Source: an uncultured bacterium
Lineage (GTDB): Bacteria; Oederibacteriota; PGYV01; CAWJRG01
Length of the DNA: 64,000 bases
Direction of reading: 5' to 3'
Assembly (NCBI GenBank): GCA_963845185.1
Contig: CAWJRG010000011.1
Span: 32,001 to 96,000 of the forward strand
The number at the start of each line of letters is the position of its first letter. The stretch's first letter is position 1. A program made the position numbers and the translations under genes. Of the stretch, positions 13,210 to 31,740 are shown one piece after another. Below the pieces are notes generated by a model. That model did no database searches. It saw only the letters and a list, made by a program, of their open reading frames with translations, and was not told the DNA's origin.

Positions 13210-13418
13210 TTAACCTTTTACCTCGTTTTAACATACCCTTCAAAAGGCAGTTAGTTTGTTGATTTTTTTATAGTACGATTTGAGAGGTGGAGCATCCATT
13301 AAAAATCCTCTAATATGCTCCCTCCCCGTAGCGCTATCATATACCGCACTATCAGCGGTAATTTTCGCGTAGAGGGATTAATAACACAATTCCACAGAAA
13401 GTCAATACTTAAACGCTT

Positions 13419-13515
13419 GATAGCGTTTATTTTATCAAGCCGAAGGCAACAACAAAATATTACGCTATCATGTACCCGCTCAAGTCCGAGGCCTACAGGC
13501 CGAGAACAAGAGGTA
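13419..13515 (-). ncRNA. Candidate cis-regulatory structured RNA motif, copy A (upstream of kimA-like gene)
   Basis: Aligns with 25219-25317 and 31530-31622; two-hairpin structure with covariation. Confidence 0.55.
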
Positions 13516-13566
13516 TTTTTATAATAGCGTTTATTTTATCAGGCCGTCAATTCCAAATTCCAAATC

Positions 13567-15096
13567 CTATTTCACTACCGCTATCTTTCCCCATGTCTTC
13601 TTTTTTGTAATGCCGTCCGCTGCTTCTATGCTGTATATAAATATCCCGCTTGCCACTGTCTTACCTGATTTATTGTTCCTGTCCCAGTAAATGCTGTTCA
13701 TGCCTGGCTCGCCCTGCTGCGAGAGTTCCCTCACAACCTCGCCGCTTATCGTGTATATTTTTACTTTTACCTGTGCCGTATCGCATAACTGGTAGATTAT
13801 ATTAGTGCCGCTTGAGCATGGGTTCGGCGAATTCTTGTATAAATTCAGGCAAAGCGGCGGCTGCGGCGTAGGTGTTATCGTGAAAGTGCATGTTATGCTT
13901 GTCGTGGGGGTTATTGTTACAGTGTATGTTATACTTGGCGTGGATGTTATTGTTGGTGAAATTGTACTGGTCGGCGATATGGTAAATGTGGGTGTCGCTG
14001 TAAACGTCAAGGTCAATGTCGAGGTCTGCGTTATTGTTGGAGAAAACGTCACAGTTGGCGGCGTCCCGGTTATTGTCGGCGTAAGGCTTGTGCACGGGCC
14101 GAATTCCTGGATTCTGTTATTACCCGAGTCTGCAACATACACGTCTCCGCTGCTGTCCACTGCTATTCCAAAAGGATAACCAAACTGCCCGTTGCCGCTT
14201 CCATAACTTCCCCATTGTGTGATATATACACCTGAACTGCTGAATTCTTGAATCCTATAATTAGTATCGTCTGCAACATACACATCCCCGCTGCTGTCTA
14301 CAGCTATCCCAGTAGGACCACTAAACTGCCCGTTGCCACTTCCGGTAGGAAGCCCGCCCCATTGTGTTATATACGTGCCCGTACTGCTGAATTCTTGGAT
14401 TCTATTATTACCCCAGTCTGAAACATACACGTCCCCACTGCTGTTTATTGCTATGCCGTAAGGGCCATAGTTTCCAAACTGGCTGTTGCCGCTTCCCGTG
14501 CTGCCCCATTGGGTTATATATGTGCCTATACTGCTGAATTCCTGAATCCTATGATTACCTGAGTCTAAAACATACACATCCCCGCTGCTGTCTACAGCTA
14601 TTCCAGTAGGACCACTAAACTGCCCGTTGCCGGTTCCAAGACTGCCCCATTGCGTAATGTAAGCGCCTGTACTGCTGAATTCCTGGATCCTGTTATTCCG
14701 CGTGTCTGCAACATAAACGTTTCCGTTGCTGTTTATTGCTACTCCTTCGGGGAAGTAAAACTGCACGTTGCCGGTTCCAAGACTGCCCCATTGAGCGATA
14801 TATGTGCCTGTATTGTTGAATGTTTGAATTCTGTTATTATACTCATCTGCAACATATACGTTTCCGTTGCTGTCTATTGCTATTCCCCATGGATTATTAA
14901 ACTGCCCGTTGCCGGTTTCGGGATTTCCTACTGAACTGCCCCATTGTGTTATATAGCATGGCGGTGAAACTGCCATGGCATGGGAATTTATTATGAAGAA
15001 GACAAACAAAAGAAACAGGAAATATTTTATTAATGTAAAGCTTCTCTGTTTCTGTAATTCAGAAAAACTTTTTATCCGCATTTTCATCCTATTCAT
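13567..15096 (-). CDS. NHL-repeat six-bladed beta-propeller protein with Thr-rich linker and FlgD-Ig/T9SS-like C-terminal domain
   Basis: Six repeats of GQF.GP.GIAVDSSGDVYV.D..N.RIQEF; TITPT linker; NSPNP...IYTISGEVVR...WD..NKSGKTVASGIFIY. Confidence 0.85.
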   Translation of the reverse strand: MNRMKMRIKSFSELQKQRSFTLIKYFLFLLFVFFIINSHAMAVSPPCYITQWGSSVGNPETGNGQFNNPWGIAIDSNGNVYVADEYNNRIQTFNNTGTYIAQWGSLGTGNVQFYFPEGVAINSNGNVYVADTRNNRIQEFSSTGAYITQWGSLGTGNGQFSGPTGIAVDSSGDVYVLDSGNHRIQEFSSIGTYITQWGSTGSGNSQFGNYGPYGIAINSSGDVYVSDWGNNRIQEFSSTGTYITQWGGLPTGSGNGQFSGPTGIAVDSSGDVYVADDTNYRIQEFSSSGVYITQWGSYGSGNGQFGYPFGIAVDSSGDVYVADSGNNRIQEFGPCTSLTPTITGTPPTVTFSPTITQTSTLTLTFTATPTFTISPTSTISPTITSTPSITYTVTITPTTSITCTFTITPTPQPPLCLNLYKNSPNPCSSGTNIIYQLCDTAQVKVKIYTISGEVVRELSQQGEPGMNSIYWDRNNKSGKTVASGIFIYSIEAADGITKKKTWGKIAVVK

Positions 15097-15177
15097 TGGA
15101 AGTTCGCGCCTCCTAATATGGCATAATTATACCATATTTTTGCGCAAATGGGCAAATCCCCCTATGTCCCTATATTT

Positions 15178-15205
15178 GTAGAGACACGCCATGGCGTGTC
15201 TCTAC
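15178..15205. repeat. GTAG-type REP-like palindrome
   Basis: GTAGAGACACGCCATGGCGTGTCTCTAC; near-identical copy at 29163-29190. Confidence 0.75.
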
Positions 15206-15252
15206 TTTAGTTTTATTATTGCAATTTAAATACAAGCGAGGCAAATCCCCCT

Positions 15253-15282
15253 AAAAAAAGACGCGGATGGAACCGCGTCTTT
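15253..15282 (-). terminator. Rho-independent terminator after fucosidase
   Basis: AAAGACGCGG/CCGCGTCTTT stem followed by a U-tract on the minus strand. Confidence 0.7.
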
Positions 15283-15298
15283 GCAATTGCAAAGCAGG

Positions 15299-16555
15299 CT
15301 AAATCTCGCCGAGCAAAACGTAGCCGTTGCCTAGCGCCTGCCTTGGCTTTGACGCGAATTCAAGCCTGATAACCGCAATCTGCGCTGTCTTGTCCGGGCA
15401 TTTTTCAGGCAGACCGCACAAGACCAGCCTTTTTTTTGTCTGGATAAAGCTAATTTTTTTACCTGTATCCAGAAAAGACGCTTTTTTTAATCTTGACTTC
15501 AGCCCGCCTATGGCAAGCTCTGTCCCCGGCCACCTGGTGCACCAGTAATACATTGTATTTAGCTTGCGTGTCCACCAGCCCGTAAGCATCCACTCCATAT
15601 TTTCTACAGCATCAACTTTGCCGTACACTGCTTCGCCATATTTTGAGAGCCACTTCCCTACAGTAAACAGCCTTTGTTTTGCCTCTTCAGGCACGCTGCC
15701 GTCCGGCTTTGGCCCAATGTTCAGCAGCAAATTACCCTCTCCGGCAGTGCAGGTACGAAGCATATCAAGGACTTTGCGGCTTGAGAGCCAGTCTTCTGCC
15801 GGGGCCTGCTGATATCCCCACGCGCCGTTAAATGTCATGCACGCCTCCCATGCGCGTCCTTTTTTCTCTGCTTTTATATGCTCTTCGGGTGTGCCGAAAT
15901 CCTCGTCAATATACGCGCGGTTGTTTATTATTATATGGGGCTGCAAATCCCTGGCCATCTGGTTCATTTTATATGATTCCCATTTTTCAGCCGTGTCAAG
16001 CGGCCACGCCATGTCGTACCAGAGTATGTCTATGTTCCCGTAGTTTGTCATCAGTTCCCGTACGCACCCCTGCGTGAAATCCAGGAACCTCCTTCTTGCC
16101 CCTTTATTTTTCGCACAAAGCGCACCGTCGGGATGGTGCCAATCCATGAGCGAATAATAAAAACCTATTTTCAGCCCGAACTCCCTGCACGCGTCCACGT
16201 ATTCGCGCACAAGGTCCCTGCCCAGCCTCTGCTTAAAGGCGTTGTAGTCATGCTGCTTCGTGTCCCACAAACAAAAACCCTCATGGTGTTTTGTGGTCAT
16301 TACCATATATTTCATGCCTGCTGTTTTCGCGAACCATGCCCATTCGCGTGCTGCGTTTGGCTTCGGGTGCCAGGTCCCGGCAAGCTTCTCGTAGTCCTTA
16401 ATTGGTATTCTCTCCCTGTTCATTGCCCACTCGTGCCTGGCAAGTTGTGAGTAAAGCCCCCAGTGTATGAACATGCCGAACCTCGCGTCGTGCCACCACT
16501 TCATCCTCTCCTGCCTTGTCTTTGCCGTCCATTTTATATATTCTTTTTTCGTCAT
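15299..16555 (-). CDS. Alpha-L-fucosidase (GH29)
   Basis: WWHDARFGMFIHWGLYS, GMKYMVMTTKHHEGFCLWDT, YYSLMDWHHP, LWYD, GNLLLNIGP; likely start ATG 16555. Confidence 0.9.
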   Translation of the reverse strand: MTKKEYIKWTAKTRQERMKWWHDARFGMFIHWGLYSQLARHEWAMNRERIPIKDYEKLAGTWHPKPNAAREWAWFAKTAGMKYMVMTTKHHEGFCLWDTKQHDYNAFKQRLGRDLVREYVDACREFGLKIGFYYSLMDWHHPDGALCAKNKGARRRFLDFTQGCVRELMTNYGNIDILWYDMAWPLDTAEKWESYKMNQMARDLQPHIIINNRAYIDEDFGTPEEHIKAEKKGRAWEACMTFNGAWGYQQAPAEDWLSSRKVLDMLRTCTAGEGNLLLNIGPKPDGSVPEEAKQRLFTVGKWLSKYGEAVYGKVDAVENMEWMLTGWWTRKLNTMYYWCTRWPGTELAIGGLKSRLKKASFLDTGKKISFIQTKKRLVLCGLPEKCPDKTAQIAVIRLEFASKPRQALGNGYVLLGEI

Positions 16556-16560
16556 TCTAT

Positions 16561-18636
16561 TTACCCGCTTTTGCCCTGGCTCATAATCTTCGCGCATTTC
16601 TCAGCTGCGATTGCCGCGAAATCCGTGATTGCCGTTATTATATACTTGTCCTGCGGGAGCATGAGCGCATAATCGGTATTAAGCGCTATTACGCCGACCG
16701 TGGAATTTTTCGTGTTCATTGGTATGAACACGAATTCAGACGCCACAAGCGAGCGCGTGCCCTTTCCGGCAGGCTCGCCCTTTTCATACACCCAGGACGC
16801 TATCGCGTAGTCGTTTTGCGCGATTTCCAGCGCATCCTCTGACCGGGCCCAAATCTTTATTTTCCCGTCCATGTCCTTGAATATGACCATATTGAGCGAC
16901 TTGACGGCCTTGGCAAGGTAGCTTGATATAATGCCTGCAATCTGCTCTAGTATGTCTATGTTTATCAGCTGTATTGTCTCTACCATTTCCCTGTTCCTGC
17001 TTTCCATGGACGTGTCGAGCACCTGCTCTATGGTCGGCACTCCAAGGAGTTCCCTGCCCATCTGCTCCAGTACCCTGATATTTTCCAACCGCAGCCTCAA
17101 TGCCTGCTGCTGCCTGTGGAAAAGCCTTGCTATCTCTCCTACGATTGCCGCCGTAGTGAGGAATATGACGAATTCCACTGCGTATTCGGGCTTGGCAATG
17201 GTAAAGCTGTAAATCGGCGGCACAAATAAAAAATCATATAATAATATCGACATTATTGAGACAAAAATTGACGGCCATGTGCCCAGCATAAAGGCGCTGG
17301 CGACAACTGCGATTATGAATATTATGGAAAAATTTTCTATTTTAAAAGTATATTTCAGTAAAAAACCGAGGGCAACGACAGGCACCAGCATAAGAAGGCT
17401 GTATATATAGTCCACTGGCTTGAAAACAGGCATGTATTTTTTCCGCCCGGATTCTTTTTCTTTTTCCGCGGTCTCGAGGCTTGGCTCTATCAGGTAAATG
17501 TCTATGTCTTTCCTGTAATTAATGAGCCTGTCCACGGGCGAAGGGATGAAGAAATTAAAAAATGTCTTTTTCACAGGCTTGCCTATCATTATCCTGGTTA
17601 TTTTTTCCTGCTCGCAGAAATGTATGAGTTCTTCCGACACGTCGTTTCCTGAAAGCGTCCTTACCTTTGCGCCGAGTTCCTCGGCGAATTCCAGGGTGGA
17701 CGCGAGCTTTGCCCTGTCCTGCACGTCGAGCTGAAGCGCGGAAAGCGAATCCACGTACACCGCATACCACTCTGCTTTTATCTCCTCGGCAAGCTGGAAA
17801 GCCTTGCGTATAAGCTGCTTTGCGTACGGGCTCGGCGATATGCACACAAGCAGGCGCTCGGTTACGGGCCACGGGCCCACGATTGCCTTTGCCTTCATGT
17901 AATTCACAAGCTCAGAGTCCAGTTTTGTCGCAACCCTGCGCAGCGTTATCTCACGCAGGGCGAGAAGGTTCGAGCGCTTAAAAAACTGGTCCACAGCGAG
18001 CTTTGCCTGTTCGGGTATATAAACCTTGCCTTCTTTGAGCCTTATATGGAGCTCCTCTATGGGGATATCCACCACTTCTATTTCGTCGGCCTGGTCGAGC
18101 ATGGAATCCGGCACGGTCTCCTGTACTTTTATGCCCGTAACTCCCGCGACAATGTCGTTGACGCTCTCAAAATGCTGTATGTTTACTGTGGTATATACGT
18201 CTATATTGTTCCAGGCAAGTTCAAGCACGTCCTGGTATCTTTTTAAATGGGTGCTGCCGGGCGCGTTTGTATGCGCCAGCTCGTCCACGAGCACGAGTTT
18301 CGGCCTGCGTTTTATGACAGCCGCAGTGTCGAATTCGTTCAGGGTTACGTTCTTGTACTTTACTTCCTTGAGCGGGATTATCTCAAAACCTTCAAGGAGC
18401 GCCTGGGTTTCCCCCCTTTTATGCGTTTCGACAACGCCTATGACCACGTCAACGCCGCGCTGCTTTAACGCGCGCGCCTGTTCGAGCATGGAATATGTCT
18501 TTCCCACACCCGGCGCGTAGCCCAGGAATATCTTCACTGCCCCTTTTGTTGCCTGCTCTTTTTTCATTTCATCGAGCAAAGCCTCCGGGTCAGGTTTCAG
18601 CATATTGTCATCTGCCAATGTTTTTCTCCCTTTCAT
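16561..18636 (-). CDS. kdpD: KdpD-like sensor (KdpD N-domain, Usp, 4-TM DUF4118, GAF) lacking the histidine kinase module
   Basis: KIFLGYAPGVGKTYSML, LVDELAHTNAPGS, TTVNIQHFES, Usp (LLVCISPSP), DFLFVPPIYSF, GAF; ends after the GAF helix with no H-box or HATPase motifs. Confidence 0.85.
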   Translation of the reverse strand: MKGRKTLADDNMLKPDPEALLDEMKKEQATKGAVKIFLGYAPGVGKTYSMLEQARALKQRGVDVVIGVVETHKRGETQALLEGFEIIPLKEVKYKNVTLNEFDTAAVIKRRPKLVLVDELAHTNAPGSTHLKRYQDVLELAWNNIDVYTTVNIQHFESVNDIVAGVTGIKVQETVPDSMLDQADEIEVVDIPIEELHIRLKEGKVYIPEQAKLAVDQFFKRSNLLALREITLRRVATKLDSELVNYMKAKAIVGPWPVTERLLVCISPSPYAKQLIRKAFQLAEEIKAEWYAVYVDSLSALQLDVQDRAKLASTLEFAEELGAKVRTLSGNDVSEELIHFCEQEKITRIMIGKPVKKTFFNFFIPSPVDRLINYRKDIDIYLIEPSLETAEKEKESGRKKYMPVFKPVDYIYSLLMLVPVVALGFLLKYTFKIENFSIIFIIAVVASAFMLGTWPSIFVSIMSILLYDFLFVPPIYSFTIAKPEYAVEFVIFLTTAAIVGEIARLFHRQQQALRLRLENIRVLEQMGRELLGVPTIEQVLDTSMESRNREMVETIQLINIDILEQIAGIISSYLAKAVKSLNMVIFKDMDGKIKIWARSEDALEIAQNDYAIASWVYEKGEPAGKGTRSLVASEFVFIPMNTKNSTVGVIALNTDYALMLPQDKYIITAITDFAAIAAEKCAKIMSQGKSG

Positions 18637-18693
18637 GAATTTTCCTTATTATATCAGTTGCTTCCTTTTAGTCAACTGGCCTTGCTTTAGCTT

Positions 18694-18996
18694 TTATTTA
18701 CTAAAGCTGTCCGCGGCTGTTGCCTTGGCCGCGAGCTTCAGCTCTGCCTTTGCCTGGCTGAGCAAATCCATTGCTTTCTGCGTGTGCCCGGCCGCGTCAA
18801 ACTCATTGGCTTTTTTTGCGGCCGAAAGTTTTGTATATGCCTTTTTCACCAGTTTTTGCGCCGCGGCAACATTCGGATGGCTCCCGTTTGTGTCATTAAA
18901 TAAATCATTAGGAACATCTACTGCAAAGGTTGTGCTGGTTATTAAAATCAATAAACTTGCGGCAAACAATAAAACTGTCATTTTATTCATTTTCAA
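18694..18996 (-). CDS. Small exported helical protein of unknown function within the kdp cluster
   Basis: Signal peptide (TTFA|VD); GGAGG RBS; Ala/Lys-rich helices with HPNV and AGH motifs. Confidence 0.7.
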   Translation of the reverse strand: MKMNKMTVLLFAASLLILITSTTFAVDVPNDLFNDTNGSHPNVAAAQKLVKKAYTKLSAAKKANEFDAAGHTQKAMDLLSQAKAELKLAAKATAADSFSK

Positions 18997-19025
18997 ACCT
19001 CCAGGTTGTGCCTTCCGCCGGCAGA

Positions 19026-19613
19026 TTATTTCGCGTTAGCGTCAAGGTAAATGTTGAGCTCAAGCACATTTGTCCTTTCCGGTCCTATAAAACCAAGAAA
19101 CGGCTTTTTGGTAAATTTATTTATGGCGTCTATGACTATCTTTTCATCGAGCTTGCGCGCTTTTGCCACACGGCCTGCCTGCCACACGGCATCGGTTTTT
19201 GTTATTTCAGGGTCCAGCCCGCTCGCAGACGCTGTCAGCATATCGTCGGGTATTTTATCTTTATTGCCCTTGTTCAACTTTTTCTCGGCATCCAGCCTTT
19301 TCATAAAGGCAGCCACAAGGTCAGGGTTTGTCGGAGCAAGGTTTGACCCGCCCGAGCTTACAGCGTTAAAAGTGTTTACATTATAGTCAGGGTCAATTGC
19401 AGACGGCCTGGCATGGAAATATCCAGGCTTTTCAAACTTCTGCGCTATCAGCCTGCTGCCTATAACCGTGCTGTTCTTTGTGATAAGGCTGCCTTCTGCC
19501 TGCTTGGGAAAAACAAGCTTTGCAACACCCCATACAAATACAGGGTAAATTATGCCTGTCAGCAATGTAAAAATTCCGAGCATTGTTATTGATGTCATCA
19601 GTATTTTCTTCAT
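19026..19613 (-). CDS. kdpC: K+-transporting ATPase subunit C
   Basis: GIIYP...FPKQAEGSLI...GSRLIAQ, YFHARPSA, SGGSNLAP, TASASGLDPEI, NVLELN. Confidence 0.95.
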   Translation of the reverse strand: MKKILMTSITMLGIFTLLTGIIYPVFVWGVAKLVFPKQAEGSLITKNSTVIGSRLIAQKFEKPGYFHARPSAIDPDYNVNTFNAVSSGGSNLAPTNPDLVAAFMKRLDAEKKLNKGNKDKIPDDMLTASASGLDPEITKTDAVWQAGRVAKARKLDEKIVIDAINKFTKKPFLGFIGPERTNVLELNIYLDANAK

Positions 19614-19663
19614 GTGTACATCTCCAATCTTATATGTTTTTTATTTTGTAGAGAGGCGGCTTG

Positions 19664-21277
19664 GAGTCTGTCTCAAAACTCTTTTAAACGCCTTGCATTG
19701 CCTACACTTATCGCGTTTTTTAGCCCCTATCTTTATTATTTCTCTTCTTTTCGATTTGTGGTTCTTTTCTTGTCAGGTTGCGAACCTTAATTTAACCTTA
19801 CCTTCCCTCCACAAGGCATACATTGTCTTTATGTTATGGGCGGCGCATATAAAAGACCATTGTGTTTTTACGCTTTCGATTCCTCTAACACTAAATCTTG
19901 TAAAACCAAGTACGTTTTTTATACGTCCCAATAATGGCTCAACTATTGTTTTTCTCTTTCGAAGCTGTTCTTTCCAGTTATTGGCCCTAGCTTCTTCTCT
20001 GTATATTGACACTATCTCCTCATACTCATGCTTATTTGCTTCTATTATCCTTCCGGATTTTACCTTGCTGCATTCGTATTTATAAATACAATCCCTATGA
20101 TCCCCGCATCGGTATATCATTGTCTCTTTTCCGTTTTTCTTCTTCCTTATACTGGTATATTCAAGCCTGCCATTTTTAGGACATACATATTCGTTTTTTT
20201 CTTTGTCGTATTTAAAATGCGCTTTGCCATACGGCCTATCGCTGTCATCCTCCGGCAAGTTAACAATTATATTCCTTTTTTCTTCTTTGGCTTTTGCCAG
20301 TTCTTCCGGTGAATAATACCCTCCATCCGCAAGCGTTACTCCTGATTTTTGTCCGGTATTCGACTCTGCTTTTTCTATCATATCATTCAGCATGTGAGCA
20401 TCCGATTCCTTGTTTGTCACATTCTCTGCCACAATTATCTGTTTCTTTGCGTCCACAACAACCTGTGAGTTATATGCCTGTTGCAGTCCTTTACCTCTTG
20501 TCATCACGAACCGGCTGTCTCTATCTGTGGGGTTTTCAGTTGTTTTTCCTTCACTTTTCATACGTTCTATATGTTCTCTTATTACCTGACGCAGTTTCTC
20601 CTTTTCCTGCAATTCTTTTGGCATTCCGCACTTACTTTTGTCCTCTTCATCGTCTTGTTCGTCATTTTTCTCAATTTCCACCATTATTTTGTCTATTTCT
20701 CTGTCTAATTCTTGTATTTTTTTATTCATGTCTTTTATTGTTTTGGTCTTTTCCTTATTTACATCTGCCTGTATTTTTGTGCCGTCCACGGCTTGAATTT
20801 CAAAACCAACCAAATTGTTGTTTGTTGCCACACGCACCGTCTCCTTCAGTAAAACCCTTATCTGCTCTTTATTTCCTTTAAAAAATCTCCATAGCGTATT
20901 ATGGTCGGGATGATTATTCCCGGTTATCCATATCATCCCCATTGAATCGTAAGTCATTTTTTCAACTTTTCTGCTGCTCTTTTTTCCTTCCAGTATGCCG
21001 TACATCCATGCCCCAAGTAAAAAATCTACAAAATATCCCGGTCTTCCGGTTTCTTCTTCCATTTTAAAACCCATCTCTTCAAGCGGTAATTCTTCTACGA
21101 ATTCTACGACAAATCGAGCTAAATGATCTTTTGAAACCCAATCTTCTATTGCCGGTGGCAGTAGATACATTTGATTTCTATCGGCTCTTATCGTTGGCAT
21201 TTGGTTTCTCCTTCGCTAAATTTTGAAACCATTATACCATTTATGTCAAAGAATTAAGAGGCTTTTGAGACAGACTC
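19664..21277 (-). mobile_element. Second IS1182-family element (1614 bp) between kdpB and kdpC, 4-bp CTTG target duplication
   Basis: IRs GAGTCTGTCTCAAAA / TTTTGAGACAGACTC; CTTG at 19660-19663 and 21278-21281. Confidence 0.92.
19773..21200 (-). CDS. IS1182-family transposase, intact
   Basis: PDHNTLWRF, AVDGTKIQAD, TDRDSRF, AYNSQ, LADGGYYS, RKTIVEP. Confidence 0.92.
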   Translation of the reverse strand: MPTIRADRNQMYLLPPAIEDWVSKDHLARFVVEFVEELPLEEMGFKMEEETGRPGYFVDFLLGAWMYGILEGKKSSRKVEKMTYDSMGMIWITGNNHPDHNTLWRFFKGNKEQIRVLLKETVRVATNNNLVGFEIQAVDGTKIQADVNKEKTKTIKDMNKKIQELDREIDKIMVEIEKNDEQDDEEDKSKCGMPKELQEKEKLRQVIREHIERMKSEGKTTENPTDRDSRFVMTRGKGLQQAYNSQVVVDAKKQIIVAENVTNKESDAHMLNDMIEKAESNTGQKSGVTLADGGYYSPEELAKAKEEKRNIIVNLPEDDSDRPYGKAHFKYDKEKNEYVCPKNGRLEYTSIRKKKNGKETMIYRCGDHRDCIYKYECSKVKSGRIIEANKHEYEEIVSIYREEARANNWKEQLRKRKTIVEPLLGRIKNVLGFTRFSVRGIESVKTQWSFICAAHNIKTMYALWREGKVKLRFAT

Positions 21278-21323
21278 CTTGCCCCTTCTCTACAAATATT
21301 GGTATCCCTATTCCCGATTCCCA

Positions 21324-23387: not shown

Positions 23388-23402
23388 TTTGTTTTACCTC
23401 AG

Positions 23403-25127
23403 TTAGTGGATGCTGCTGAAAAGCTGCATGTGCTCCGCAATCGGTCCCATTGTCAGGGCAGGCAGGAATGTCAGCCCGCCTACCAGCAATATTATCATTA
23501 CAAGCATAAAAGCAAATAGGGCGTCATTTGTAGTAAGCGTGCCTACCGAAGATGGCGTTATTTTCTTGTTCGCGAGCCTGCCTGCAAGCGCAAGCACAAG
23601 GACCAGCGGCACGAACCTGCCAAAAAACATGTTGATGGAAAGCATGATGTTCCAGAAGTTTATATTTGCATTAAGCCCGGCAAATGCCGAGCCGTTGTTT
23701 GCCACAGAGGAAGTCGCTGCGTATAACAGCTGCGAAAACCCGTGCGGCCCCGGGTTTGAAGTTGATTTGACTGCGTCAGGGACATAAATTGCTATTGCAG
23801 AAAGCAGGAGCATAAGTATTGAGGAGAATATAGCTGCAGCCACGGTCAGCTGTATCTCGATTGGCCCTATTTTTTTTCCCAGGTATTCCGGAGTCCTGCC
23901 TACCATGAGCCCTGCGATAAAAACCGTAATTATAGCGTAAAGCAGGAGCGTATAAAGGCCCGATCCCACTCCGCCCGGTATCAGTTCGCCAACCTGCATG
24001 TCAAAAAGCTCTATGAGCCCTGTCAAAGGCATATTGCTGTCATGCATGTTATTTACTGCGCCGCACGAAGTAACTGTGGTAACAACCGAGAAAAGCGGCG
24101 ACTGACCGCCCAGGAACCTTGTCTCCTTGCCCTCGGTATTGCCGTTTAAAAACGAAACGCTGCTTCCTGCGCTTTTAGCCAGCAAAGGGTTTGCCGTGTT
24201 TTCTGCAAATATTGCTCCTATTACAAGCAGCACCACCGTGATAAAAACAGCGTAAAAAAGCGCCCTGCCCTGCTTTATGTCGCCGCTGTATTTGCCGAAA
24301 GTAAATATCAGGCCCATGGAAATAAGGAGGATAAAGAACATTTCCAGTATATTTGTCAAAGGCGTCGGGTTCTCGTACGGATGCGCTGAATTTGCGTTAA
24401 AAAATCCGCCTCCGTTTGTCCCGAGCATCTTTATGGCAATCTGCGACGCTACAGGCCCCTGCGGTATCACCTGAGTGGCGCCTTCCAGAGTCCTTGCCTG
24501 AGTGTAAGCGGAAAAATTCTGCGGTGTGCCCTGCCATACAAGCACCAGCGCGCCGATAAGGGCTATTGGCAGGAGTATATATAATGTAGTTCGGGTCAGG
24601 TCAACCCAGAAATTCCCTATTGCCTGCGCTTCTTTGCGTACAAGCCCCCTGACCAGGGCTATTGATACGGCAATGCCTGTGGCAGCGGACAAAAAATTCT
24701 GCACGGCAAGACCTGCCATCTGTGAGAAATAGCTCATGGTTGTTTCAGGAGTGTAAGCCTGCCAGTTGGTATTCGTGACAAACGATACTGCCGTATTCAG
24801 CGCCATCCATGCGTTCTGCGCCCCGAGTTTTAGAGGGTTAAGCGGCAAAAATCCCTGCAGCATGATGATTGCAAAAAGTAATACTATCCCCAGGACGTTA
24901 AAAACCATCAGCGATATGGCGTAAGCCACCCAAGTTTGTTCGTTTTCGCTTTCAACGCTTGATAGTTTATATATCATGTTTTCAAGCGGCAAAAATACAG
25001 GGGATAAAAATGTCTTCTTGCCCGAGAATACATTATACATATACGAGCCAAAAGGCCTTGCTGCAATAAGAATCAGTACAAAAAAGGAAACTATTTCACC
25101 AAAAATTTTCCAGTTCATATGCACCAC
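23403..25127 (-). CDS. kdpA: K+-transporting ATPase subunit A (start may be ATG 25118)
   Basis: SFVTNTNWQAY, LGTNGGGFFNANSAHPYENP, TSCGAVN, GRTPEYLGKKI, ANNGSAFAGL. Confidence 0.97.
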   Translation of the reverse strand: MVHMNWKIFGEIVSFFVLILIAARPFGSYMYNVFSGKKTFLSPVFLPLENMIYKLSSVESENEQTWVAYAISLMVFNVLGIVLLFAIIMLQGFLPLNPLKLGAQNAWMALNTAVSFVTNTNWQAYTPETTMSYFSQMAGLAVQNFLSAATGIAVSIALVRGLVRKEAQAIGNFWVDLTRTTLYILLPIALIGALVLVWQGTPQNFSAYTQARTLEGATQVIPQGPVASQIAIKMLGTNGGGFFNANSAHPYENPTPLTNILEMFFILLISMGLIFTFGKYSGDIKQGRALFYAVFITVVLLVIGAIFAENTANPLLAKSAGSSVSFLNGNTEGKETRFLGGQSPLFSVVTTVTSCGAVNNMHDSNMPLTGLIELFDMQVGELIPGGVGSGLYTLLLYAIITVFIAGLMVGRTPEYLGKKIGPIEIQLTVAAAIFSSILMLLLSAIAIYVPDAVKSTSNPGPHGFSQLLYAATSSVANNGSAFAGLNANINFWNIMLSINMFFGRFVPLVLVLALAGRLANKKITPSSVGTLTTNDALFAFMLVMIILLVGGLTFLPALTMGPIAEHMQLFSSIH

Positions 25128-25204
25128 TACTCCTTTACATTAAAGAAAGCATAGATAAGGTAAACAAATAGAAAAATTGCAATTACCAGCGCCGCAATCC
25201 ACAT
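25127..25204 (-). CDS. kdpF: KdpF-like 25-aa membrane peptide MWIAALVIAIFLFVYLIYAFFNVKE
   Basis: Manual translation; AAGGAG RBS at 25212-25217; abuts kdpA; LFVYLIYA pattern typical of KdpF. Confidence 0.8.
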   Translation of the reverse strand: MWIAALVIAIFLFVYLIYAFFNVKE

Positions 25205-25218
25205 GGTTTTTCTCCTTG

Positions 25219-25317
25219 GAGTCCGTTGATTTTGCCGGGCGTCAACAGCAGAGGCAAAATCTTACGGAGTCTTGTAACCGCTCCAGCACGAGGCCGCCAG
25301 GCCCAGGACAAGTGGTA
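25219..25317 (-). ncRNA. Candidate cis-regulatory structured RNA motif, copy C (directly before kdpF RBS)
   Basis: Aligns with copies A and B; perfect 9-bp stem GATTTTGCC/GGCAAAATC; ends immediately before AAGGAG. Confidence 0.6.
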
Positions 25318-25533
25318 CTTCTTTTATTTCATTGATATTTTTTTATTGATGCAATCCAAACTAAATATATAGACCTATTACATTTGGTCTTTTTGGGAAA
25401 TTAGTTGGTCGTTAAATTAGTTCGGGAGACATTTCTGAAAGTCCGCGGCATTATAGCCGCAACTTTATCTTATATCAATCAATGTTACGCATCCTCATAG
25501 GCAGCCGTATGATTTACAGCCGACGTATTCAAG

Positions 25534-25878
25534 TCAGTCGTTTATTATTTCCTCCAGCGTAAGCTGGTCTTCCTCCCTTAAAGGGAAAAACTCCACTCCA
25601 AACTGGCCTTTACCGTTTTCGTCCTTTATCCATTTGATAAATGCAAATAAAACTATGAATTTATTGCCGGACTTGAATAATATTCTCACCACATCGTTTT
25701 CTTTCCCGACAAGCTTGCCCTCTATTCTCGCGCCGCCGATGCTGATATCCTTGCTTTTGCCTTCCATGTCCTCCCTGTTCGCTATTATACTTTCCGCCAC
25801 TACATTATAGGTAACCTCAAACTTCTTTTCAACTCTCCGCTCTTTCCGCTTTTCAACATAAAGGTTTCCTTTTGCCAT
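25534..25878 (-). CDS. PilZ-domain protein
   Basis: EKRKERRV (RxxxR) and KDISIGGARI (DxSxxG) motifs; FGVEF. Confidence 0.85.
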   Translation of the reverse strand: MAKGNLYVEKRKERRVEKKFEVTYNVVAESIIANREDMEGKSKDISIGGARIEGKLVGKENDVVRILFKSGNKFIVLFAFIKWIKDENGKGQFGVEFFPLREEDQLTLEEIIND

Positions 25879-25899
25879 AACACGCTCCCCGGCAAGAAT

Positions 25900-26563
25900 T
25901 TATTTTGCTTCGCCGAATTTATTCTCCACCCATTTCTCTATTTTATCAAGTGCTTCTTTTGCTTGCTGCCCGTAAGTAAGGAATTCAAGCTCATCGCCCA
26001 TGGCGGCGCACATGCCCACCAGGTCAAGGGCCGCGAGTACCGACTTCACGTTCAGGTACGGTTTGCCGTCTATTGCAAAATTATAATGGTCCATGCCTTC
26101 TTTATGTATATAAATCTCGCAGTTATATTCGCGCGCTATGCCCACAAGCGTGCCCGATGGCCTTACGTGCAGGCCCCTTTCATTGCTAATCTTAATCTTA
26201 CGCGTCAAGAACCCGTGCCGCTTCAGCGATTCCCTTTCCTGCCTCCAGATTTCGGCGTATTTCCCGCGCCATTCCTCTATTGCCTCCTCGCCCAGGTCCC
26301 CTGCCTTCCTCTTTTGACCGCAGGTATTTATGCTTGTTAATCTCATGCAGCTGGTCGAGATTGTCCCTCCTGTTTTTTTCTTTTCTCCACTCATCCCTGT
26401 ATTTCTCAAGAAAATCCTCTATTGCCTCGTTTATCGTCACATCTTTGTCTAATTCCAGCGCCATGAAGTATTTATGGTCAAGTATGGCCTTTAGTTCAGC
26501 CGGCGTCAAATCTTTTTCGTCAAAATTCAACTGCCTGCACCTCCCTGTTTTTGGGTCTTGCAT
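25900..26563 (-). pseudogene. Fusion of two DUF4032-like helical repeats to an HPr phosphocarrier domain; frameshift at GGGG run ~26298-26301
   Basis: ORF 26198-26563 (ILDHKYF..., INKHKYLRSKEEGR) continues as DLGEEAIEEW...GLHVRPS...NVKSV in ORF 25900-26409 if one G is removed. Confidence 0.7.
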
Positions 26564-26695
26564 TTACAGCAAAGGAACATGCATATATTATATACCACAA
26601 TAAACGTAAATGTCAAACTTTGCCTTAAAGAGTCATTTACAAATGAGGAACGCTGCCTCATTTTGGCCTAATTTTTGCACATTTAAAAGACAATA

Positions 26696-28186
26696 TTATA
26701 TAAACAAGTCCGCGCCGAACTGGTTTACGTTGAAATTTCTCCACCTCTCTATAAGGTCGCTTGCCATAAAATCCGCAGAATTGTTGTCGTCTGTAATAAT
26801 GGTCCCTGTATCCTGCAATTTAACGTCAAGATACTGTTTGTCAACCGCAACAGGACTGTCGGAAGCGTAAAAAACAAAGGACGACAGCCCTTCATTCTGT
26901 GCCTTTATATATACATTTTTATAAACCTGTTTTAAAGTCCTGTTTAACGACATGACAAGCTTATTGACCGCTACATTGCCGTCTATGTCCCTGTAAAGAT
27001 ACCCCATCATGTTAATAACAAGTATGCCGTTGCCGTTAAGCGCGTTTTTCGCCTCAAAAAAAGCCTCTTTTGAAAGAAGGTAGGGATAAACCGAATATCC
27101 GTTGAAAGCGTCAATAAAAACCATGTCGTATTTCTTTTTTGTGCCGTGGAGAAAATGCCTGCCGTCCCCGATTACGGCCCCGCCCTTGAATCCAAAATAT
27201 TTTCTTGCTGCATTTACTACTTCAGGGTCAACCTCGACTGTATCCAGGTTAAAACCGCGGTTTTGCAGCAGGCTGTTCACCGACCCTCCGCCCAGGCCTA
27301 TGGTAAGCGCATTTCTCGCGCCCGGTCTGTAATCAGCCGTTTTTTCAAACATTTTGATGTATGCGGCGTTGAATTCTTTTGCTTTCATGTCATAATATGA
27401 CTGGATTGCCCCGTCTATCATGATAAACCTGTATAAATTCTGCCATTCCATCACCCTTATCCTGCCGTATGCGCTTTGTTTTTCATAAATGATTTTCATG
27501 CCCGGGCCGTATGCCCTGGCCATAAAAATGTCCGGCATGGAATATAAAAGTGCCAGGACAACGGCAGGAATTATAGCTGCTATGTTTTTTCCGCCTTTGA
27601 CCATGAATCCTGCAGCTGCAACAAGTATCAGCAGCACTCCTGATAAGATTATTATGGCATGTATGCCGATTGCCGGTATCAAATAAAAACCCGTTAAAAT
27701 AGCTCCTGTAAAGCTGCCTGCCGTCGCCACGGCGTACAAACTTCCGGCAACCGTGCCGATTTTTCCGAATTTTCCTTCGTTTATCTTCACGGCATAAGGC
27801 GAAACCATGCCGAGCAGGACCAGCGGCACGCTAAAAAGCAGGGCTGAACTTGCAAGCGCCCCGAACCTCGGGTCCAGGATATTTGTGCCTGTCATTATAT
27901 GGGCGCTGATAAGCGGTATTATTAGGATAAAAACAGCGCTTGCAGATATTATATAATAAAGCATGTTTGGTTCCGGCCTTTTATCCGAAAGTATGCCGCC
28001 CAAAAAATAACCGGTGGTAAGCGATAAAAGCGTGACCCCTATCAGCGAGGACCATGCGTAAATGGTCGTGCCGTAAAAAGGCGCGATTATCCTTGTGCCT
28101 AGTATTTCAATAACAAGCACAACTGCGCCGGTGATAAAAACCGTCAGGTACATGTAATATTTTTCGAGCATTTCTTTTAATGTCAT
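26696..28186 (-). CDS. Fused MFS-like membrane domain / spermidine synthase-like SAM methyltransferase
   Basis: VIEILGTRIIAPFYGTTIYAWS, TM domain, then IGLGGGS, VEVDPEVV, GDGRHFL, YDMVFIDAF. Confidence 0.88.
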   Translation of the reverse strand: MTLKEMLEKYYMYLTVFITGAVVLVIEILGTRIIAPFYGTTIYAWSSLIGVTLLSLTTGYFLGGILSDKRPEPNMLYYIISASAVFILIIPLISAHIMTGTNILDPRFGALASSALLFSVPLVLLGMVSPYAVKINEGKFGKIGTVAGSLYAVATAGSFTGAILTGFYLIPAIGIHAIIILSGVLLILVAAAGFMVKGGKNIAAIIPAVVLALLYSMPDIFMARAYGPGMKIIYEKQSAYGRIRVMEWQNLYRFIMIDGAIQSYYDMKAKEFNAAYIKMFEKTADYRPGARNALTIGLGGGSVNSLLQNRGFNLDTVEVDPEVVNAARKYFGFKGGAVIGDGRHFLHGTKKKYDMVFIDAFNGYSVYPYLLSKEAFFEAKNALNGNGILVINMMGYLYRDIDGNVAVNKLVMSLNRTLKQVYKNVYIKAQNEGLSSFVFYASDSPVAVDKQYLDVKLQDTGTIITDDNNSADFMASDLIERWRNFNVNQFGADLFI

Positions 28187-28334
28187 CTTTTCTCCGGTTT
28201 CCAGGTCCCATAAAATGCACGTATGCCCTTGCTGTCAAATATGTTATTATTGAAATAACAAAAAGTCAATATACATAAAAAGGAAATGTGCTATAATATT
28301 CCCAATAAGACGGGTAAATTAATCGAGGTGACCC

Positions 28335-28631
28335 ATGCATTTTACAGCATCGTGGCATATAAATGCCGAAGGCGAAAAACTTAAGCAGATAAACGACTTC
28401 ATGGCCGAAGTGGTAAAAAAACAGGCCGACGCCTGTTTTTCGCCGTATCCGGGCTTTGTTTTTGCAAAGTGTGATTCCAGTCAAAAATGGGAAATAGTAT
28501 TGAATGGGCTTAAAGGCCTGTGCCAGATGTATGAAGGCAAGATCAACTTTGTAATGAGCCCACTTTTCGAGAACGGCAAATACAACGGACATCTTGCGAA
28601 CTGGACTCAAATTAACGATATAACAAAATAG
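28335..28631 (+). CDS. Hypothetical protein
   Basis: 98-aa ORF with GAGGTG RBS and upstream TATAAT; no recognised motif. Confidence 0.55.
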   Translation: MHFTASWHINAEGEKLKQINDFMAEVVKKQADACFSPYPGFVFAKCDSSQKWEIVLNGLKGLCQMYEGKINFVMSPLFENGKYNGHLANWTQINDITK

Positions 28632-28638
28632 CCGCCCG

Positions 28639-29154
28639 ATGAAAAAAAAGACTGCTGTTTGCCTGCTGGCATTTTTTTTGTTATGTCAGGCCCCTTCTCT
28701 GATTTTCCCCAGGGCTTATCAGATAATGAACACTCCGGACTACAATGACAGTTTATCCAGGTTCAAAAGATATGACATGTCCGGAGGCTTAAGCCTTGGC
28801 ATGTCCGATTATTTGAACATAGGCGCCGGATTAAAATTCAACCTGCATGAGATCCCGTTCTGGTCCATCAAGGTCGACGCGTCAATGATGCCTTCAGCAG
28901 AAAAAATACTTTTCTTCGAGGAAACAGGTTTTGTATATAACTTCTATTTTGAAAAATTTCCATCTTTGAGTTTATTCGCCGGACCATCCACGGGTTTCGT
29001 AATAAAAAACTCCAGCAGTTATTTCGGTTTTGGCGGTGAAGCAGGCGCTGATTATTATATAAACGAGCCCGGATCCGCTTCTGTTTTCATTGATTTTAGT
29101 TTCCTGTCCAGGCTGTATCCATTGATTTCCATCGGGATTAGATTTTATTATTAA
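28639..29154 (+). CDS. Putative small outer-membrane beta-barrel protein
   Basis: Signal peptide, alternating Gly/aromatic strands, C-terminal ISIGIRFYY. Confidence 0.6.
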   Translation: MKKKTAVCLLAFFLLCQAPSLIFPRAYQIMNTPDYNDSLSRFKRYDMSGGLSLGMSDYLNIGAGLKFNLHEIPFWSIKVDASMMPSAEKILFFEETGFVYNFYFEKFPSLSLFAGPSTGFVIKNSSSYFGFGGEAGADYYINEPGSASVFIDFSFLSRLYPLISIGIRFYY

Positions 29155-29162
29155 TTTTTATC

Positions 29163-29292
29163 GTAGAGACACGCCATGGCGTGTCTTTACCTTAAACGCA
29201 CGAATCGCCTTTGCTGCCGTTTTATAGCCGCAGACTTTAGTCTGCGCATCTAAAAGCCGCTAACATTCAAATACCGCAAACTAAAGTTTACG
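29163..29292. repeat. Cluster of REP-like palindromes (29163-29190; inverted pair 29225-29246 and 29275-29292)
   Basis: GTAGAGACACGCCATGGCGTGTCTTTAC; TAGCCGCAGACTTTAGTCTGCG ... CGCAAACTAAAGTTTACG. Confidence 0.7.
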
Positions 29293-29539
29293 CCTCTTTC
29301 ACCCTCCGTCCTTCCATCCTTCTAACCCTCCGCCCTTCCGCCTTATTTGCTCCACCACACGTCGTTCAGCGTATGCGCCGGGCCCGTGCTGCTGGTATCC
29401 ATACCTGCTATCACCCACATGCGGTTACTTTTGTCCAGGCAGTTCCCGGGTCTGTGGGAACCGAAGGCCCTGCCGGTTTTTTTCTTTGAGCACGCGAAAA
29501 ATAAAACCGTGAAAATCAGTAGTGGAATTAATGTTTTTT

Positions 29540-31444
29540 TGTGAGTAGACATCTTTTATAACCTCCTTTGGTTACTTAATGCCCCTCTCAGAACCGAACG
29601 TGACCGTTTCGGTCATTCGGCTCCACGGGAATACTTCCTAATACGATGACAGCGAATAGGTTAAATGATATATCCTGGGTTCCGGCAATGGGTTGTATCT
29701 TAGAAAGCGGCAAAACTGTTCCCAGTTGTAACTTCTTTTCTGGCTTCGCCTGTTTATCCATTTATAGGCGAGCGCACGATTTCTCCAGTAGAATTTTGTT
29801 ATTTGGGGCATATTACCGCTTATCCCGTAATAATTGTAGTGGCCCGTTAACTTTCTTCCTAATGCCTGCCACCACTGTTTTAATTCCACAAGATTTCTTA
29901 CGCTCTTTAGCCAGAAGTTCGTCGCCTTCATCTTCTGTTTGAATTTTGTACTTGCCGTCCTTCGGCCTAATTTGAAGCCGCCCTTTCTGGTTTTGTCGCA
30001 GTAATGAGTAAACCCGAGGAAATCAAAGGTCGGAATTTTCCCGCCTGTATCTTTGGACTTATACCAGGCGTGACGCCCGAATACGATTATTCTCGATTTA
30101 TCTTTGGCGATTTTGAGGCCAAACTTATCAAGCCTCTGTCTTAACATTTCGCCAAACTCCTTTGCTTCGCTGTCATATTGGAACAGCACAACAAAGTCAT
30201 CGGCATAACGTATCAGACTGGCGTATCCTTTGAGCTGTCTCTTGACATGCCTTTCGAACCACAGGTCTAATATGTAGTGTAGGTAGATGTTCGCCAGTAA
30301 TGGGCTTAGTATTCCGCCCTGCGGCGTCCCTTTATCCGTTTCGATAAACTTACCTTCTTCCATAATCCCTGCATTTAATATCCTGCCGATTAACCTTATC
30401 AGGTTTGTATCGGCAATCCTTTGCGTAAGGCATTTCATTAGCCATTTGTGGTTTATGGTATCGAAAAACTTCTCAATGTCCATATCCACTACTGCGTTGA
30501 CTGGCTTTGTCATTACTTCCTTATCCAGAATTTTCAATGCCTGATGACAATTTCTGTCAGGCCTGAACCCGTAAGATACTTCGCTGAAGTCTACCTCAAA
30601 GATTGACTCAAGAATTTTCTTTACCCCCATCTGGATTATCTTATCCTCGACGGCAGGTATTCCCAGCGGCCTCTTGTCTCCGTTTGTCTTGGGGATGTAG
30701 ACGCGCCTTGTTGGTTGCGGTATGTATCTCCACGCCTTCATCCTATTGATTAAATCCTTGATATTTGCCTCTTTGTTGACTTCATATTCCTCTATCCTTA
30801 CTCCGTCAATGCCCGGGGCTTTGTCCTGTTTTAACTCCTCAAAGCACTCCATTAGAAACTCCTCATTGAGCAGGTGTATCAGCGATGTAAATCTCAATTT
30901 TGGATTTTCCTTTGCCCGCATTGTTATGGTCATAAGTTTTGTTGCCATTCCGTCTCCACCTCTGTGTGTGGCGGTTGTCTCCCTTATGTCCATACGCATT
31001 CCCTCTATCCCCTTTTCTCCATCTACTTTCGTAGACTTCATCGATACTATGGGATAGTCAGACTGCCGGAACATCTTTTGCGGCTCCTTATCTTTTAGGA
31101 TTTGTCGCCGCATACTCTCGTTTTGAGGGTGTCCCGGCTCTCCCGAGTTCATATCTGCTCCTTGACATCTTGACACGGACTTAGACCCCGTCGGATTCCC
31201 ACTCTCTCGCCTTTTATGATTGTGGGACTGCTGCCTGCTCTTTTATGAAAAATGTCGGCCTCCGACACGTTGGCGATTTCGGGGCTCAATACCTTCACTT
31301 GCGTTGTATCCCGATGTCTCCCGCCTTCCAGCTTCATTTAGCTCGTTGCCTCACTATTTGTGGAATTTGGTATTGGGCTGGCGGCTGACCTTTGCCCAGG
31401 CTGGACTTTCACCAGCGCGAACCGATACGCTTTTCTCGGCGCAC
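29540..31444 (-). mobile_element. Group II intron (~1.9 kb)
   Basis: 5' GTGCG at 31444; domain V GAGCCGAATGACCGAAACGGTCACGTTCGGTTC; domain VI GGGGCAT...ATGTCT-A-CTC; 3' end uncertain by 1 nt. Confidence 0.88.
29638..30948 (-). CDS. ltrA: Group II intron reverse transcriptase/maturase (no endonuclease domain)
   Basis: APGIDG, RPLGIP, SYGFRP, GTPQGGILSPLLANIYL, RYADDF, FDFLGF, GHYNYY; likely start MATKL at 30948. Confidence 0.93.
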   Translation of the reverse strand: MATKLMTITMRAKENPKLRFTSLIHLLNEEFLMECFEELKQDKAPGIDGVRIEEYEVNKEANIKDLINRMKAWRYIPQPTRRVYIPKTNGDKRPLGIPAVEDKIIQMGVKKILESIFEVDFSEVSYGFRPDRNCHQALKILDKEVMTKPVNAVVDMDIEKFFDTINHKWLMKCLTQRIADTNLIRLIGRILNAGIMEEGKFIETDKGTPQGGILSPLLANIYLHYILDLWFERHVKRQLKGYASLIRYADDFVVLFQYDSEAKEFGEMLRQRLDKFGLKIAKDKSRIIVFGRHAWYKSKDTGGKIPTFDFLGFTHYCDKTRKGGFKLGRRTASTKFKQKMKATNFWLKSVRNLVELKQWWQALGRKLTGHYNYYGISGNMPQITKFYWRNRALAYKWINRRSQKRSYNWEQFCRFLRYNPLPEPRIYHLTYSLSSY

Positions 31445-31529
31445 TCATAACCGCCTCCCTTGGTTAAATATCCCTGTGAGATATTTAACGGGTAGTATCA
31501 ATAAGTCATCATATTAAAAACTACCCTAA

Positions 31530-31622
31530 GTTTACTTTCTCAAACCGTCAACAGGTGCCGGGAAAGTATTACGAAATCATGTACCTGCTCAAGTCCAAGG
31601 CTATTGCCGAGGGCAAGTGGTA
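31530..31622 (-). ncRNA. Candidate cis-regulatory structured RNA motif, copy B
   Basis: Aligns with copies A and C; lies downstream of a TTGATT-17-CATAAT promoter-like sequence. Confidence 0.55.
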
Positions 31623-31740
31623 TATTTTTGTTTTTAATTTACAAATATAATTATGTCCCCAAAAAGATACTTAATCAAGGTTTTTGCTCAACTACCCCGC
31701 TTTGCTTCGCAGAGCGTCCAACCTTCCACTCCTCCGCTCC

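Follow-up and report, generated by a model that had tools for sequence, protein, structure and literature searches.

Structured leader motifs near potassium uptake genes as probable members of a dispersed repeat family found beside ribosome-binding sites

BOX elements of Streptococcus pneumoniae and the ERIC/IRU elements of enterobacteria are dispersed, structured and co-transcribed intergenic repeats that vary between strains and may affect mRNA stability; their movement is attributed to transposases acting in trans, their ends are inverted or their targets TA, and either orientation is found. Intergenic repeats with two internal stem-loops and no terminal inverted repeats have also been described, as REP2 in Neisseria and as IR-A/IR-B on Borrelia plasmids (Delihas 2011, PMC3184786), and REP2 is described there as carrying its own promoter, ribosome-binding site and ATG and as present in ∼23-26 copies (PMC3184786). 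The mobile regulatory cassettes of T4-type phages are described as phage-borne units of promoter, stem-loop and ribosome-binding site for which recombination has been proposed (PMC2839356). Here we describe E1, the label that we give to a dispersed family of ∼100-nt, two-hairpin units, three of which (copies A, B and C) lie on the minus strand of a 64-kb stretch of DNA, C11:32001-96000 of the 3.50-Mb, 11-contig and 99.4% complete genome of an uncultured bacterium (G000); this whole stretch is called the window below. The original prediction read the three motifs as a riboswitch-like element that controls kimA and kdpFABC by sensing K+, some other cation or a second messenger, with binding of a protein as an alternative. 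We find instead that they are very probably members of a family whose copies are scattered through the genome and have been gained and lost among relatives.

With a covariance model (R1) built from 46 E1 copies elsewhere in the genome, a search of the window with filters off gave exactly three strong matches, at the positions and on the strand where the structured motifs had been predicted (Table 1), with the next best match at an E-value of 0.14, and the three copies align over ∼100 nt. The count of three is right for the window and not for the genome, in which R1 recovers at least 149 copies with 150 of 1614 candidates scored, and nhmmer finds 178 matches at E ≤1e-3, 120 of them near full length. 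A pattern for the first hairpin (H1), allowing up to 3 mismatches, matched the genome 43 times against 0 for a reversed-pattern control, and a looser regular expression for H1 matched 84 times. The motif is absent from Rfam, in line with the original prediction, which could match it to no family: at the gathering score Rfam 15 marks only a group II intron (29509-31409) and one tRNA in the window and leaves the E1 copies unmatched, only chance matches appearing at E ≤10 (copies A and C). Nor did we find a description of E1 among the papers listed for Goldbacteria, FCPU426 or intergenic repeats adjacent to a Shine-Dalgarno (SD) sequence, judging by titles and the openings of abstracts.

The units begin with RYACC, end with CWW and contain two internal hairpins. 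The first has the form RYACC.CUUGUCC..GGC-loop-GCC..GGACUUGAGCGGGUR, and the second (S2) is made of an outer and an inner stem that enclose a conserved GUAA/AAC internal loop. Both are predicted by RNAalifold from 46 units, with double changes at 22 of 27 pairs. When the 46 copies are laid on a hand-drawn structure of 35 pairs, 91.5% of cells can pair compared with 77.8% in shuffles (none of 500 as high) and 30-45% in slid controls, and 24 of the 35 pairs are changed on both sides, which bears out the compensation noticed earlier in stem 2; because all 46 copies come from one genome, the compensatory events are fewer than the cells. In 18 units from 11 other genomes, aligned by fitting to the model, 90.5% of cells pair compared with 65.1% in shuffles, and 30 of the 35 pairs show compensatory changes. 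Both E1 hairpins are maintained through compensatory changes.

A SD core follows the unit within 0-4 nt in 72 of the 82 full copies and within 0-2 nt in 70 (an offset of 0 in 25 copies, 1 in 37, 2 in 8 and 4 in 2), and in 65 of these 72 a start codon lies another 4-12 nt on; in the regular-expression set, a start codon preceded by a SD sequence is found 65-74 nt past H1 in 45 of 84 copies. Copy C, said in the original prediction to end at the kdpF ribosome-binding site, does so, with AGGAG at 25216-25212 and the ATG at 25204-25202. The downstream gene is co-oriented at 139 of 158 intergenic copies compared with 53% of random intergenic placements, and 70 of the 82 full copies come after a co-directional gene, at a distance of ≤30 nt and hence inside an operon in 17 cases. 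We found no sign of a promoter or terminator of the unit's own in this genome: a -10 box lies 5′ of 22 of the 82 units, as against a shuffle mean of 20.5, in a 5′ flank that is merely A/T-rich, and terminator-like matches occur in just two of the 82 full copies, both false hits inside coding sequence.

E1 copies also come and go. The strict H1 pattern has 0 matches in 185,579 species genomes, the looser pattern gave, among the matches listed from the public genome collection, single chance ones in unrelated high-GC genomes, and no sequencing run was listed for a 9.9-kb stretch of the ATP synthase region. In metagenomes, the strict pattern identified 22 loci, and their flanks share 75-92% identity with this genome. 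They carry 26 E1 units, for 14 of which both flanks can be mapped onto G000. Five of the 14 units, at four sites (L201, L207, L212 and L213), are clean insertions relative to G000. Five sites have a unit in G000 too, namely L202 (where two units stand against a single one in G000), L205, L208, L210 and L214, the last of which is not a clean shared site as it spans a 1630-nt gap in G000, and three mapped sites are confounded by other differences. In front of atpD, the sequence without a unit is AAACA^GGAGG, and one unit stands at that very point where the site is filled. L213 is reciprocal, in that one site is filled only in the relative and the neighboring site only in G000, and at L212 G000 retains an E1 copy with an internal deletion. 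Within G000 itself, the junction GCTACG^GGGAGGG of another repeated leader module (module X) is empty downstream of copy A and holds an E1 unit exactly there at C9:532502, C9:918541, C9:528157 and C6:76379.

As the empty sites already contain the SD sequence, insertion of E1 brings none. Evidence for a target-site duplication is weak at best, with a flank match of ≥2 nt at 19 of 82 copies against a permutation mean of 13 (reached in 32 of 1000 permutations). Of 12 tandem pairs, 11 have the higher R1 bit score in the unit nearer the SD, which fits successive landings at the same SD. Together, these comparisons show that E1 is a discrete stretch of DNA which an orthologous site may have or lack. 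It lands on the 5′ side of a pre-existing ribosome-binding site, 0-2 nt from the GGAGG core, and carries in no SD, conserved promoter or clear target duplication. Repeated landings at one SD would yield tandem units of which the SD-side one is the more intact. In most cases the units share the sense of the downstream gene, and they often stand between two genes of an operon.

These properties bear directly on the proposed K+, cation or second-messenger sensor. The 70 distinct open reading frames (ORFs) downstream of E1, of which an NCBIfam scan names 53 and leaves 17 without a family, are functionally unrelated; they include atpB, metG, htrA, a pyrophosphate-dependent phosphofructokinase, apt, pyrB, lysA, fabD, surE, hydrogenase subunits, ilvD, hpf, argG, gatC, pheS, dcd, pstB, phoU, rplC, nuoL and hisG as well as genes for TPR, NHL and type IX secretion system-tailed proteins. 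Only kdpA (with kdpF) and kimA are K+-related, that is 2 of the 70, and this by itself removes the grounds for a sensor of K+ or of a second messenger, as no coherent one-ligand gene set can be made of the 70. What had favored such a sensor was that two of the three window copies lie upstream of K+ uptake genes, that copy C finishes at the kdpF SD and that no known family matched. The gene downstream of copy A is indeed a KimA homologue, but it starts 207 nt away with module X within the gap, and the right flank of copy A has no SD and adjoins that of no gene.

An expression platform is also missing, since neither a terminator nor SD sequestration was found in the E1 leaders. The suggestion that copy C could sequester the kdpF SD runs against the folding predictions, in which the mean probability of the SD being unpaired is 0.58 in E1 leaders (n = 72) and 0.46 in control leaders (n = 150; p 0.003). 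The association with kdp is not stable either: besides the units missing from G000 at the orthologous sites, the kdpF leader unit in the related contig L200 belongs to a different stem-2 subclass, and a further E1 unit lies there between kdpF and kdpA where G000 has only 8 nt. The context resembling that of a MITE (miniature inverted-repeat transposable element), which the original prediction had itself set against a riboswitch, is what the genome presents, with many dispersed copies and filled and empty orthologous sites. We therefore give the sensor almost no chance of being right, which removes a false riboswitch candidate from K+ homeostasis.

We looked for E1 with R1 in 23 other genomes of the same order, none of them of the same family or genus, and in 75 from the other orders of the phylum, with 40 candidates scored per genome so that the counts in relatives are lower bounds. 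The module occurs in 11 of the 23 same-order genomes (for example at least 17 copies in G014 and at least 6 in G023), and none of the 75 had a match. The units of relatives mostly resemble small-RNA genes, with an ATTATAT-like box just 5′ and an A-run, a GC hairpin and a T-run on the 3′ side. A strict detector finds a terminator-like 3′ end in 12 of 31 of them, and several more are visible by eye; a SD lies ≤10 nt downstream of 2 of the 31 compared with the 72 of 82 in this genome. For relatives' copies Rfam gave only sub-threshold matches, on terminator hairpins, and it assigned neither an E1 array in G000 described below nor the copy in G019 to a family. The comparison shows the module in sister genomes of the order as a putative small-RNA-like gene that stands alone, with a -10-like box in front and an intrinsic terminator behind. 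The combination expected of such a gene, its own promoter, a terminator and no adjacent SD, is absent from window copies A, B and C. Some units are syntenic across genera, with fabG-unit-acpP in five genomes and TPR-unit-radC in four, and the ancestral fabG-acpP copy is absent from G000.

We favor the view that E1 is a lineage-specific, small-RNA-derived and insertional "portable leader," co-transcribed with its gene and leaving the SD free, and we put the probability of this statement as a whole at roughly 0.6. E1 would have arisen from the small-RNA gene family seen in sister genomes, and as an insertional element that is non-autonomous it would then have spread through this lineage. Its leader copies would be transcribed together with the gene and would each fold alone into two closed hairpins, so that the SD remains single-stranded; with the SD predicted more open, we take them for closed, autonomous 5′ structures, either tolerated or of slight benefit. 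They would act at most as generic 5′ structure that protects the mRNA end or insulates the SD from upstream sequence, and would be sensors of neither K+ nor any other ligand. For the small-RNA origin and the generic 5′-structure role taken jointly, we would give slightly less than even odds. E1 is in any case an unusual interspersed repeat, a small-RNA-related structured module ≤2 bases from ribosome-binding sites in well over 100 places of a genome densely packed with genes. Should the SD truly be what is recognized as target, it would represent a new "safe-harbour" strategy for small mobile DNA and a natural source of portable insulating 5′ leaders.

Several observations weigh against this account. 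We infer both the co-transcription and the folding of the leader copies from sequence alone, the effect on SD openness is modest, and the context counts rest on crude ORF-based gene calls. Orientation is not absolute, as 8 E1 copies lie antisense between co-directional genes and the syntenic fabG-acpP and TPR-radC units are antisense to their neighbor genes. The minus strand was predicted to be the acting one; the units do mostly share the sense of their downstream gene, but the supporting argument from G-U pairs is weak, because the 46-copy alignment has 65 G-U against 62 A-C cells, with one pair supplying 41 of the G-U cells. This balance leaves the acting strand in this genome unproven, whereas the units of other genomes have 14 G-U and 3 A-C cells. 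E1 copies have a median pairwise identity of 0.71, and just 2 of 82 are matched at ≥0.95 by a dispersed copy. Pairing kept at 91.5% in such old copies argues for some selection on structure, and a real function fits it better than a neutral passenger does.

That last point leads to the main rival of the portable-leader reading, a post-transcriptional regulon with decoy RNAs. A lineage-specific RNA-binding factor would recognize H1 or S2 beside the SD, through the GUAA/AAC loop, the UC/UC loop and bulges, and would control translation or decay of >100 genes, with the stand-alone copies and an array serving as decoys in the way that CsrB acts as a decoy for CsrA. The array, at C9:916520-917175 (locus L225), consists of seven E1 units, six full and one interrupted, that repeat at exactly 100 nt, and has no adjacent SD or gene; together with the stand-alone, terminated copies of relatives it speaks for such a regulon. 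Structure kept by compensation despite a median identity of 71%, invariant unpaired positions, synteny across genera and a fixed spot at 0-2 nt from the SD, the place for a regulator of translation to act, all speak in its favor. However, no candidate protein was identified, the target genes have no common theme, the stems differ strongly between sequence subclasses, and related organisms differ at about half of the sites that can be evaluated, a fast turnover for a regulon. On balance, we think such a regulon unlikely, at around one chance in five; if a factor does bind the units, this uncultured lineage would have a post-transcriptional network that is both global and new.

The portable-leader reading is further weakened by the search for a mobilizer. 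No mobilizing gene for E1 was found in the genome: there are 0 matches to the Y1 transposase (PF01797), for which a control search matches 6 of 14 genomes, and there is no TnpB. This result counts as well against another rival, in which E1 would be purely selfish DNA whose hairpins serve single-strand DNA transposition in the manner of IS200/IS605 ends, PATEs or REP/RAYT, RNA folding being a by-product and SD adjacency the target choice of a transposase. The hairpin ends without terminal inverted repeats, the lack of a clear target duplication, the presence or absence of units at orthologous sites, the balanced G-U and A-C cells and the decayed copies with internal deletions would all follow from such a process. 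Yet the conserved target GGAGG lies 3′ of E1 and not 5′ as for IS200/IS605, the module in relatives is flanked by a putative promoter and terminator, and any replication-strand signal is masked by gene strand: because 85-90% of genes are co-oriented with GC skew, a replication-strand bias of E1 is inseparable from the gene bias. We regard pure selfishness as improbable, to about the same degree as a regulon.

The gene-strand bias of G000 is itself very strong, with ∼85-90% of ORF calls co-oriented with GC skew, a degree that is unusual outside Firmicutes-like genomes.

IS110 elements were considered as mobilizers of E1 and rejected, a further negative for its insertional spread: of the 7 IS110 matches in the genome, two of which are single-copy genes, the comparison covers the four identical copies, and these four sit in a different hairpin, CCCTCTCCC/GGGAGAGG, and have ends unlike E1. 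The four are ∼1.3-kb elements at C1:323041, C5:335702, C9:330368 and C10:445859 that adjoin the CCCTCTCCC..GGGAGAGG inverted repeat, which suggests that this is another hairpin-type repeat serving as IS110 target.

A bolder version of the favored view is that E1 is a small-RNA-derived non-autonomous element that chooses its site by reading the SD, would give genes new leaders in this way, and has stand-alone copies and arrays that titrate a leader-binding factor. Recognition might work by RNA-guided pairing, for instance via the CCUC tract of E1, or through machinery borrowed from the genome's group II introns, whose homing seems likewise to target SD-ATG sites. If true, ribosome-binding sites would be the target of a mobile element and transposition would have built a regulon, but we consider this a long shot. 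A general link between E1 and the introns was rejected, as E1 stands just upstream of only 2 of the 7 intron copies.

The features of the window are collected in Table 1. The sequence gataaaataaacgctat is present on either side of copy A, and left-flank remnants like the one beside this copy are found at many other E1 copies. Module X has 27 BLAST matches in the genome and no Rfam match; internal pairing is conceivable between its CCCUC tract and its GGGAGGG, and a 19-codon ORF follows it upstream of kimA. The second repeat beside copy B, E2, has 38 BLAST matches of ≥45 nt in the genome and is nested within S2 in most of the 22 "half" (truncated) E1 copies.

Table 1. Coordinates of the E1 copies and associated features (positions in the window; SD, Shine-Dalgarno sequence; R1, E1 covariance model)
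Feature	Position	Strand	Evidence or remarks
KimA-like K+ transporter gene, 661-amino acid permease	11224-13209	-	Pfam AA_permease_2; PDB KimA 6S3K, E 2.7e-62
Module X, second repeated leader module	13300-13376	-	Unoccupied E1 landing site GCTACG^GGGAGGG between 13327 and 13326
Copy A, complete two-hairpin E1 unit	13417-13516	-	R1 95.5 bits, E 5.6e-23
Remnant of older E1 unit, 3′ half of S2, directly 5′ of copy A	13524-13550	-	
kdpA, followed by kdpB and kdpC	23403-25118	-	Pfam KdpA, KdpC, E1-E2 ATPase
kdpF-like ORF, 25 codons	25127-25204	-	Sequence; alignment with related contig L200
Copy C, complete E1 unit adjoining kdpF SD	25217-25318	-	R1 77.1 bits
Group II intron with reverse transcriptase ORF (29638-31176)	29509-31444	-	Rfam RF02005 101.5 bits, RF00029 49.3 bits; Pfam RVT_1
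SD (AGGGAGG) and ATG of the gene of copy B	31446-31460	-	Gene interrupted after ATGA
E2, different ∼64-nt two-hairpin repeat (GGGTAG..CTACCC, then GTTAAATATCTC..GGGATATTTAAC)	31463-31526	-	Between copy B and SD
Copy B, E1 unit without 3′ outer stem	31526-31623	-	R1 54.1 bits; 4-position gap there

Around kdp, the operon is split by an insertion sequence, a gene for a 475-amino acid DDE transposase (DDE_Tnp_1_6, DUF772) lying at 19773-21200 on the minus strand between kdpB and kdpC. A KdpD-like protein is encoded at 16561-18636 on the same strand; it has KdpD, Usp, DUF4118 and GAF_3 domains, and the Pfam scan shows no histidine-kinase catalytic domains. The next gene after it encodes a fucosidase and is not kdpE.

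The group II intron downstream of copy B is inserted after GGGAGGCGGTTATGA and begins with GTGCG, its 3′ end being uncertain by 1 nt; the exon end in the gene of copy B (ATGA) is the same at all seven copies of this intron family. Six other copies are found in G000, at C10:385218, C10:831397, C9:699945, C9:813074, C9:846914 and C1:269894, and all seven are sense-oriented after (G)GGAGGCNNWWATGA, that is the SD, the ATG and one base of the gene. With exon 2 taken to start 1 nt 5′ of where the Rfam match ends, six of the seven spliced ORFs are 119-334 amino acids long with signal or lipoprotein peptides (MKK...), and the host ORF of the window intron is a 56-amino acid remnant, MTVLFFACSKK.... 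The intron family seems to home to translation-start regions.

Among known systems, the cyclic di-AMP (ydaO/kimA) riboswitch RF00379 shares with E1 that both are structured leaders before kimA-type and kdp genes; E1 differs in its fold, in having no Rfam match to it at E ≤10 and in its unrelated downstream genes. With the ends of IS200/IS605, PATEs and REP/RAYT elements, E1 has in common hairpin ends, no target duplication and oriented insertion beside a short target, whereas its target lies 3′ of the element and its genome contains no Y1 HUH transposase or TnpB. It is not a classical MITE, as it has neither terminal inverted repeats nor a clear target-site duplication. Like BOX and ERIC elements, it is dispersed, structured and gained and lost, and it differs from them in its adjacency to the SD; no BOX or ERIC/IRU element is known to adjoin a SD within 0-2 nt. 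E1 resembles the cassettes of T4-type phages in being a small portable module at translation starts that goes along with gene gain and loss, whereas these cassettes are described as phage-borne and promoter-carrying, and have been proposed to act through recombination (PMC2839356).

By analogy, the nearest described counterpart of E1 would be REP2 of Neisseria. Both are ∼100-150 bp long, have two stem-loops and no terminal inverted repeats, lie immediately 5′ of ORFs and form part, putatively in the case of E1, of the 5′ untranslated region (PMC3184786). Set against the description of REP2, E1 stands apart in having no SD of its own and no conserved -10 box, and also in its at least 149 copies, its tandem units and its stand-alone, small-RNA-like relatives.

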